A DNA stretch of 64,000 bases, taken from Chrysomallon squamiferum. Its lineage: Eukaryota; Animalia; Mollusca. Positions 12,702 through 15,700 of this stretch are shown here, in pieces; the stretch's first letter is position 1; every line of letters starts with the position of its first letter. The translations under genes were made by a program, and so were the position numbers. The stretch is from assembly GCA_012295275.1 (NCBI GenBank), contig CM022673.1:19220001-19284000 (forward strand). The letters run 5' to 3'. Below the pieces are notes generated by a model that saw only the letters and a list, made by a program, of their open reading frames with translations, had not been told where the DNA came from and ran no database searches.

Positions 12702-15700
12702 TTACTTTGTAACTGCAAATCCCACCCGATTATTTTCTAAATCAAATTCAGAATAGAAAGGCCCAATAAAAACATCACCAAGGATCCACAATGGTCCACG
12801 TGGTGGTGGAACATCAATACTTGCAAACCCACTTAGACATATTGTCTGACCCATTTGAGAAACCTGGAAATAAACAAAGGTGCTCATAATTTCAGTATGC
12901 CTTTATGCTAGAAAATGTTTCAGAAGTGGAAAGAAACAGTGCTAAGGAAAAAATGAAGTAGACCCTGCAATGAAATTAGTTCTAATAAATCTGTTAGAAA
13001 AAACAAAAACCAACAAGCTTGTTTATTGAACATGTACTGAATGATGGTTATTCATGTAGATAAAGTCTCCATTTGCCAATACTGAATTCTGAGTATTACT
13101 TTCTATGAAAAAAATCTATTTTGTCATTATTATTTGTTTGGAAAAAAGAAATAAACACATTTCAATGTAGAAAACATTTTGTATGATGCACATCGTGTCC
13201 TATGTCATAAAACAATTCAAAATAACCACAAACAGCAAGAACAAACAAAACAAAAAGATGGAAAGATTTCTTAGGGGTTCTAACTTGAAAATAGGAAATT
13301 GCAAGGAAATGTGCACTTCCTCATTATCTTCACAATTTCAGAAGTCACTAGTAGCAATTTAAACTCACATAAATATATGAAATTTTAATACAGCAACTAT
13401 TTGGAAATAAACAGCTGATACATTTTTATTTATTTAGTTTCTGCAAAGCCAATACGATTTCTTTTAAGATCAAATTCGGTGTAATAGGGTCCAATGAACA
13501 CATCACCCAGAATCCACAGTGGTCCTTTTGGAATATCCAGTCCCATGAATCCACTGAGGCAGACAGAGTAGCCAAACTTGCTAATCTACATTGGGCAAAA
13601 AAAAACAAACAAAAACTACTACAACAAAAATGATCAAATTATAAAAATTTAACACCGAAAATAATCTTAATCATCTGAAGCAGGTCAGTAACAGTTACTG
13701 CAGACATCTGATAAATAGTTCAAGGTCCGAACACCATTCTCAAATATTAATATACATTTTACTTGTCTGTAAAACAATGTTGATTTTTATTAAGGTCTAT
13801 TCTGGTTAAAGGAAAACAATATATATATATAAAAAAATATATATATATATGTATAAACAAACACACACACACGTACATATATACATACAGATACACATAT
13901 ACATATAGACACATATGTACACACACACACATACATACATAATAATTAATTAAAGCAAGTGCGGAAGAACGTGAAAAAAGGAAGGTGTTAAAACTCTTAA
14001 GACTACAAAAAATAAAAAATTCAGATAAGTCTAGGAAAAAGTGAATTAATTGTATTACAACACAGACATATTTAATCAATGATTTTTTTACATGCACAAC
14101 CTATTAACCAGATGGTACACACCATGACCTTTTTTATATCAGTTGTGCATCAGTTTGAATGAAAAAAAGCTCAAAAGGACCTCTAACAAAATTCAGTCCA
14201 GTGACCCACAACACCTTAGGTCATGTTATCCCATTACCTTCTGTCATGTAAAATATTAGTCACAAAACATTTGAATGCTGCCTGTTTTGTCCTTCATAAT
14301 TATACTCTCTTCTGGTGACTATAATATTAATGATGTCTCCGTACCAACTGAGAAATGGCAGCATCCAAATAGGATTTAAAGTTTATTTTATAAAACTGAT
14401 GAGTAACAATAAATAAAATAATCTGGAAGCATGCAGGATATATTTGTTCTAGTTCAATACTTATTAAATGCACTTAAAATAAAAACAGGATTTTATTTCA
14501 ATTTAAATAAATTTTTGTTTTGTTAGTTTCATCATTTAATATCAAAATAAAAATATAAATTATAAAATAAATGAAGAATGTAAACATACTCTTATGTTAA
14601 GCAACAACTATCAGAACCAATATTTGAAAACAGAAACTTTTTCCCAATACTTACTCTTAGAATGTATTCTTTTCCAGTAAGGGTAAATGCTTTGCCACCC
14701 ACTGTAAATGTTATTGTTGGAAGTTTGGGAATGCTATTACAGTCAACCATGTACTAAAAAATATTTTGAAACAATTTTTAACTTAATACATATTTCTTTA
14801 TGACTATATCAGTATATGTTTTAAATAAATTGAGAATGCTTAACCATGATGAAAACTTTTAAAGCAGAAGTGTTAGGGCCAAAATGTAAATAATATCACT
14901 GAAAGTTTTGTTACATTAACAGTGCAGTCTTTCACTGAATAACTAAGCCAGTGTAATTACTCACTTAAAGTATACCTGCGATGGTACAAATAAATGGTCT
15001 AATAAAATTCTTTAAACTTACATGATATTGTTTTGTGTGACTTAATACTGGTCATAAAGTGTAACATTAAAATAACAATTACAAAATCTTCCAATGCTAA
15101 CATTTAACCCTATCACAACTCATACATGTTTTAATAACTTTAAATTTAGGGAGAAAAAAAAAAATGTTTACTTTCTATCTGTGATATTACCTCTCCTCCT
15201 GCTAAAGGTTTGGCTCCAATCAGATTCTGAATTTTTGTCACCTCAGAGGTTGGTCCTGCAAGGAGAGAAGTTCCAGTATCTGCTATAGCTTGACATCCGC
15301 CATTACAGAATATTCCTGGAGTGGCAGTATTTACAGTCAATCTAAACATTTAAAAAGAGATAATAAAACACAGTAAGGCTAATTAAATCACAAAAAAATA
15401 TATATATTATTTTCCACTCTATTTTTATTAAGGATAACATCACAGTTTTACTTACTCCCATCCTTTATTTATCCCTGATAATGAAATATTCAATCTACCA
15501 TGCACAAGATTTTCATCAAAATGAATTTTAGAATGACTTCTCCAATTGTTTCTCAGAACCACAAAGGACATAGGAAACCATTTATAAATAATTTTTAAAA
15601 TACCAATTCTGCCATTATTAACACAGAGATAGTAACTTTATCCAGTTGATTATACCAGATTATGCAATACTGTTATTTTTAATCAGTAAATATTCTTTTT

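Follow-up and report, generated by a model that had tools for sequence, protein, structure and literature searches.

Two tandem alternative last exons in a lophotrochozoan cathepsin D gene and their likely role in substrate specificity

The locus and its genes

The window analysed here, a stretch of 64,000 nucleotides from Chrysomallon squamiferum (assembly GCA_012295275.1, contig CM022673.1, positions 19,220,001 to 19,284,000), carries on its minus strand a cathepsin D gene with 8 shared coding exons (21181-14655) that are followed by 2 homologous last exons. The assignment to cathepsin D (peptidase A1) is based on two DTG motifs, a prepro region and the fact that the nearest solved relatives are cathepsins D. 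The parts of the gene and the evidence for each of them are as follows.

21117..21181, minus strand: shared coding exon 1, with ATG start and signal peptide-like sequence (joint 19542/21117 in 3 of 4 RNA runs)
19404..19542, minus strand: shared exon 2, propeptide (spliced frame, RNA contigs)
18684..18807, minus strand: shared exon 3, first catalytic DTG motif (spliced frame, RNA contigs, motif scan)
17917..18035, minus strand: shared exon 4, flap and N-glycosylation sequon (spliced frame, RNA contigs, motif scan)
16377..16576, minus strand: shared exon 5 (spliced frame, RNA contigs, Pfam)
16005..16127, minus strand: shared exon 6, N-glycosylation sequon (spliced frame, RNA contigs, motif scan)
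15191..15341, minus strand: shared exon 7, second catalytic DTG motif (spliced frame, RNA contigs, Pfam, motif scan)
14655..14753, minus strand: shared exon 8, with one donor, joined to either last exon (spliced frame, RNA contigs)
13430..13585, minus strand: proximal last exon, with Met 287 and Leu 289 (pepsin positions), a proline loop shorter by 2 residues and the stop at 13432-13430 (RNA, alignment)
12864..13429, minus strand: spacer of 566 nt, skipped in the distal form and covered by RNA contigs of the proximal form, likely their 3' UTR (RNA contigs)
12702..12863, minus strand: distal last exon, with Ala-Ser-Ile at 287-289, the full DxPxPxGP loop and the stop at 12704-12702 (RNA, alignment)
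12430..12701, minus strand: 3' UTR behind the distal exon, its end not fixed (candidate AATAAA at 12505 and 12492; contig ends at 12598, 12448, 12430 and 12117)

Positions and translations of both last exons, read again from the sequence, agree with a preliminary description of this DNA, as do the AG acceptor, the phase 0 start and the place after shared exon 14753-14655 of either exon. The completed open frames encode 392 or 394 amino acids, depending on the last exon used, and each last exon matches the Pfam family Asp (PF00026) above the cutoff. Among the proteins fetched, which include no close relative, the individual exons find their best matches (71-74%) in chiton, abalone and pearl oyster. 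Since the signal peptide, the propeptide and both N-glycosylation sequons are encoded in shared exons, they are common to both forms. Both tails end at the same residue and carry no C-terminal extension, and the proximal tail contains 6 lysines and arginines vs 3 in the distal one.

Upstream of the cathepsin D gene lies a gene for a class C G-protein-coupled receptor (23490-41453, minus strand; 7tm_3 at 25227-25909, ANF_receptor at 41244-41453), which we take to be GABA-B-like. In between, at 22418-23485, the summed contig depth in the DNA-like sequencing run X5 is about 13,000-fold vs about 60 nearby, indicating a very high-copy repeat. Exons of SDHAF2/Sdh5 (PF03937; 8037-9807) are found on the plus strand, convergent with cathepsin D. 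In intron 4 the stretch 17400-17915 is GC-richer, and the 23-residue piece of it that was tried gave no Pfam match; its reading resembles what we assume to be a decayed retroelement RNase H fragment.

Splicing and 3' ends of the transcripts

Five runs cover the window: four RNA runs, which come from one study as assembled contigs with coded tissues, and run X5, which behaves like DNA, having unspliced contigs and a depth of 59-60 along the gene body as compared to 48-83 in the flanking DNA. The preliminary description had proposed a single gene with two expressed alternative last exons and had named the RNA junctions 14655>13585 and 14655>12863 as a check. Both joints, starting from the same exon 8, are present in all four RNA runs. 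The junction ends read CT..AC on the plus strand and correspond to GT-AG introns, and the shared exons lie on single RNA contigs without variant letters. Each message has one last exon joined to the same upstream exon, and no joint from the proximal to the distal exon is listed in the RNA contigs. The contigs bearing the two joints have depths of 87/74, 66/39, 39/29 and 52/41, values of the same order of size, which is a weak hint that neither splice form is a mere trace, contig depth being unable to rank the parts of a gene.

Moreover, in each RNA run one contig takes in the proximal exon together with all 566 nt of the spacer and reaches 30 nt into the distal exon, at a depth of 28-69 as compared to 2-11 in the listed intron contigs. 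A contig is not a molecule, and a reach of 30 nt is one nucleotide below the bridging threshold of 31 nt; at least some proximal messages would, by this evidence, carry the distal exon as 3' UTR. Because the contigs cross the whole spacer, they agree better with a choice between acceptors, the 3' end being probably common to both forms, than with a polyadenylation site for each. Of the two processes that had been put forward together, splicing and polyadenylation, the former is thus documented by both joints and the latter is not needed as a separate event, albeit contigs cannot show ends and part of the proximal messages may end early, even with the spacer covered in 4/4 RNA runs. The AATAAA that had been noted downstream of each last exon adds little, since this hexamer occurs every 368 nt on this strand and the proximal copy (13430-13425) is altered in a contig of run X3 that still has the proximal joint. 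The alteration behind the proximal stop, 13428 A>T on the plus strand, is seen in one X3 contig and is possibly an allele.

Age and constraint of the exon pair

How old are the two last exons? Of their 51 aligned residues 34 are identical, as are 101 of 156 nucleotides, with a dN of about 0.28 and a saturated dS (2.09 by LWL85, undefined by NG86). Earlier, both copies had been considered old and under purifying selection on the basis of 7 silent differences in a block of 13 identical residues. Counting again gave the same 7, but choosing an identical block is circular, so that dN and dS over the whole exon are the better evidence; by these values the exon was duplicated long ago and has stayed under constraint in either copy, in agreement with the original claim. 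That no other cathepsin exon is doubled and that this is not a tandem gene was also confirmed, as tblastn of the 64-kb window found no second copy of the upstream exons and single contigs run over the shared exons.

The same tail switch in other animals

A search with the proximal exon led to a 439-residue Mytilus model that contains two tails, and a search with the tail of Mytilus isoform X2 gave 32 candidates. In cluster look-ups, named isoforms with an identical body and a switch within 0-3 residues of the window boundary were found in 14 genera, namely Patella, Haliotis, Liolophura, Mytilus, Saccostrea, Ruditapes, Pecten, Ylistrum, Mya, Dreissena, Sinanodonta, Lingula, Lineus and Watersipora; three tails occur in Mytilus and in Lineus, and one tail only in Pomacea, Tubulanus and Macrostomum. 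All 10 clusters queried contain a switched-tail pair, but since clusters were picked largely for names including 'isoform', neither the 14 genera nor the 10 clusters give an estimate of frequency, and the comparisons across genera are mostly between predicted gene models. Two Patella caerulea proteins with different locus tags were left uncounted. In a blind screen, 277 fetched proteins formed 37 shared-body groups, 16 of them with switched tails (15 named lophotrochozoan, one unnamed); no switched tails were found in this screen among the named insect, coral and vertebrate groups. At the level of DNA, the same introns and two last exons preceded by AG are found in L005, a genomic contig and the only one of 80 metagenome loci with twin last exons, most of the others being transcripts or non-animal. 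The twin-exon layout is thus conserved in relatives, as L005 and the gene models from 14 genera show. L005 also carries a tandem repeat, with a unit of about 27 nt, at 8410-8757, following its second last exon.

In a tree of the tails (54 columns) 1 of 31 branches is starred, and neither window exon belongs to a starred set. X1 and X2 form separate groups within heterodont clams and within scallops, and copies of the same species group together in Haliotis and in Mytilus (X1+X3). Given this same-species grouping and a tree that is mostly without support, a single origin is at most likely; one old origin with patchy homogenisation is the likely history of these tails. The proximal exon of the window was considered as an orthologue of Mytilus X2, which has a similar start and basic residues, and this found no support, as the two are identical at 35 of 50 positions, several tails do equally well and the tree does not group them.

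Some further models deserve mention. In Mytilus P0002, P0121 and P0129 two alternative tails are fused in one protein, and the Pinctada model P0265 retains a stub of a second tail; all of these are likely annotation errors and reveal the exon order. Several Darwinula (ostracod) models (P0175, P0178 and P0236) have several cathepsin D tails, from tandem genes or alternative exons. Long C-terminal extensions are found on one tail of several bivalves (P0304, P0273, P0307, P0309, P0310, P0215), in Macrostomum P0044 and in the 428-residue chain of the Schistosoma mansoni cathepsin D SmCD1. The 'two forms' of schistosome cathepsin D are said to differ by a C-terminal extension, to which the extensions in bivalves and SmCD1 are possibly linked.

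The swapped segment

In pepsin numbering, which was taken from the match ranges, position 287 is the residue after the conserved GF. This residue is Met in the proximal and Ala in the distal exon, and position 289 is Leu vs Ile. According to a 1994 title by Scarborough and Dunn, position 287 is the dominant S2 determinant of cathepsin D. Over 15 pairs of tails, one from the window and 14 from the other genera, assigned by eye and related by kinship rather than independent, position 287 differs in 11 and opposes I or M to T, A, S or V in 8; the residue is the same across tails in Patella, Lingula, Lineus and Watersipora. The copy with I/M287 and L289 is the upstream one in the window, in the chimeric Mytilus models and in L005. 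The class marks are mixed in Mytilus X2, and the distal exon of the window starts like one class A tail. The most variable columns form the turn at exon positions 3-4, which differ in 12 and 13 of 16 pairs; this count includes the JGI pair P0137/P0139, which lies below the tail-switch threshold of the blind screen and was dropped for the set of 15. Excerpts of PMC12865886 call Met336-Gly337 of SmCD1 S2 residues. By chain numbering these two correspond to the turn at exon positions 3-4, although residues 287-288 are Met-Gly as well; either way they lie in the swapped exon. Lineus X3, modelled with AlphaFold2 on an alignment of 23 rows, reached a mean pLDDT of 40.7, and the model has no part in the evidence.

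The second difference is the proline loop. By the motif DxPxPx(G/A)P, the proline-loop criterion of lysosomal cathepsin D, the distal exon has the loop and the proximal exon is without it. Calling the latter loop-less, as was done originally, is therefore right for the motif and wrong for an absence of the pepsin kind, as the exon has a deletion of 2 residues only. Similarly, the motif is absent from pepsin (excerpts of PMC4826915), as had been stated, but the loop of pepsin is not shorter, since the alignment of pig pepsin with the distal exon (8-50 to 281-323) shows no difference in length. According to excerpts of the respective papers, the loop is among the few features that separate cathepsin D from pepsin (PMC5736985), pepsin and the digestive cathepsins D of flies are marked by loss of DxPxPx(G/A)P, which 'may be associated' with a function outside the cell (PMC4826915), and in a model of fluke cathepsin D the polyproline loop covers the active-site pocket (PMC8466142).

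Mechanism and alternative explanations

What could be the use of two last exons? The reading that we consider probable, on the strength of these comparisons, is that of an old lophotrochozoan tandem last-exon swap in one cathepsin D gene, which would likely tune substrate specificity. Exon 8 is spliced to either of two tandem copies of the last exon, the duplication being likely early lophotrochozoan, and as exon 8 has a single donor, each message takes one acceptor and no special exclusion machinery would be needed. The proximal form has its stop in its own exon, followed by the spacer and the distal exon, likely as an intron-free 3' UTR; with no intron behind its stop, the proximal message would not be a target of nonsense decay. 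Positions 287 and 289 of the pepsin numbering fall, like the proline loop, within the swapped 51-53 residues, a segment that would line the active-site cleft, and Met and Leu together with the short loop, as opposed to Ala and Ile with the long one, may alter the size and cover of S2 and neighbouring subsites. Since the catalytic aspartates are shared and the shape of the subsites would differ, the two enzymes likely cut different peptides. To the contrast at 287 and 289, which would be the older one, this lineage likely added the loop deletion later, and Lineus shows a parallel. More tentatively, and with somewhat less than even confidence, one may imagine a splice switch kept since early lophotrochozoans that provides 2-3 proteases of different S2 and prime-side specificity under the control of tissue or feeding, exon choice taking here the part that gene duplication took in flies and bugs and one copy in this lineage and in Lineus having its loop shortened toward the schistosome gut form.

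The preliminary description had instead seen a secreted or digestive enzyme in the short-loop form and lysosomal housekeeping in the long-loop form. Such a division of labour would agree with the tentative link of motif loss to pepsin and fly digestive cathepsins D (PMC4826915, excerpts), with the gut-expressed SmCD1, which has the identical 2-residue deletion, and with Lineus, which also pairs long and short tails. Lineus is, however, the sole one of the 14 genera that does so (X3 short, two other tails long), and loop length is equal across tails in the other 13, being long in all tails of 12 genera and short in both tails of Watersipora. Together with the targeting features that both forms share, this argues that a contrast in the loop is not what twin exons generally conserve. 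The short loop is moreover found in 43 of 317 tails fetched, also in cockroach, termite, leafhopper and Pocillopora proteins that bear the automatic name 'lysosomal aspartic protease', and pepsin's own loop is not shorter; across the tails compared, a short loop alone is not diagnostic of a digestive enzyme, and the residue at 287 is a commoner contrast than loop length. As both forms also have the same signal peptide, propeptide and sequons and occur in 4/4 RNA runs (tissues coded), we see no support for the view that the loop assigns the pair to lysosomal and digestive or secreted enzymes, and regard the proposal as unlikely.

Alternatively, the main use of the tails could lie in regulation or trafficking, by way of the 3' UTR, an extended C-terminus or the charge of the surface, while cleavage specificity would hardly change. 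The proximal message is likely longer by about 730 nt, its tail has the more basic composition (6 vs 3 lysines and arginines), the X1 tails of Ruditapes, Pecten, Ylistrum, Mya, Dreissena and Sinanodonta have long C-terminal extensions, and the most variable columns fall into a turn. That very turn holds the residues of SmCD1 called S2 residues (PMC12865886, excerpts), though, and both window tails end at the same residue without extension; furthermore, a change of UTR or tail needs no second whole homologous exon under purifying selection, so that this explanation appears improbable. Still another thought would be an artefact of assembly or annotation, in which a second gene had been collapsed or one of the exon copies were dead, as the search for a second copy spans the 64-kb window rather than the whole genome and no long contig over 12000-14900 is listed in DNA run X5. 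The low or unlisted X5 cover over 12000-14900 was itself rejected as a finding. Against an artefact stand the two joints that a single exon 8 makes in 4/4 runs, the contigs that tie the proximal exon to the spacer, the same layout in 14 genera and L005 and, with little weight, the DNA depth of 59-60 over the gene body vs 48-83 on the flank; it is largely refuted and very improbable. We return to the swap of substrate specificity as the favoured explanation; the layout is broader than was first supposed, and its likely point is a different one.

If so, these animals would offer natural pairs of cathepsins D with about 340 identical residues that differ only in the segment with position 287 and the proline loop. 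Such pairs would allow a direct test of the long-used rule, a correlative one, by which lysosomal and digestive enzymes are told apart by the loop. In addition, gene-level data on expression or activity of cathepsin D in mussel, oyster, clam and abalone would mix 2-3 enzymes, and some database models, as mentioned, contain two tails in one protein.

Comparison with known systems

No description of twin last exons for cathepsin D was found in the open-access literature searched, including excerpts of PMC12032550, PMC4398375, PMC6960241, PMC10481938 and PMC3166049; Romero et al. 2022 and Wong et al. 1997 may anticipate part of it. In databases, RefSeq and GenBank proteins named 'lysosomal aspartic protease isoform X1/X2/X3' from molluscs, Lingula, Lineus and Watersipora have an identical body and the same switch point. 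They are automatic models without interpretation, and the contrast in loop length is found among them in Lineus only. The same switch point and an identical body are also seen in 'cathepsin D1' and 'D3' of Mytilus galloprovincialis. Romero et al. 2022 is presumably the source of these mussel names.

In lacking DxPxPx(G/A)P the proximal form is like the digestive cathepsins D of muscomorph flies and the A1 peptidases of Rhodnius (excerpts of PMC4826915 and PMC5736985), but those are separate sequences of gene families, whereas here one gene has a 2-residue deletion in one splice form. Closer is SmCD1 (PDB 9snt, 9rxi, 9hk2), which has the same loop shorter by 2 residues and aligns to the proximal exon without gaps. 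It is expressed in the gut (PMC12865886, excerpts), and as a solved and gut-expressed enzyme with this deletion it indicates that the deletion is tolerated; it differs from the gene in the window in that no twin exon is shown for it.

The nearest parallel in gene structure are tandem duplicated exon substitutions, which in human swap C-termini in 77 of 236 events and are mostly ancient, with mostly conservative changes (Martinez-Gomez et al. 2022, PMC9741552, excerpts). The terms cathepsin, CTSD and protease have no match in the main text of PMC9741552. Like the events described there, the present case has tandem copies of a terminal coding exon that are used alternatively. The tested features of this known splicing class are all found here: a tandem of homologous exons, both matching PF00026 and identical in 34 of 51 residues, at a distance of 566 nt, one last exon per message, and a pair that is old and conserved in relatives (saturated dS, 14 genera and L005). 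Unlike the regions discussed in PMC9741552, which lie mostly off ligand-binding residues and, when terminal, are often exposed or disordered, the segment exchanged here belongs to the core fold beside the substrate cleft, and such a swap is unusual within the class.
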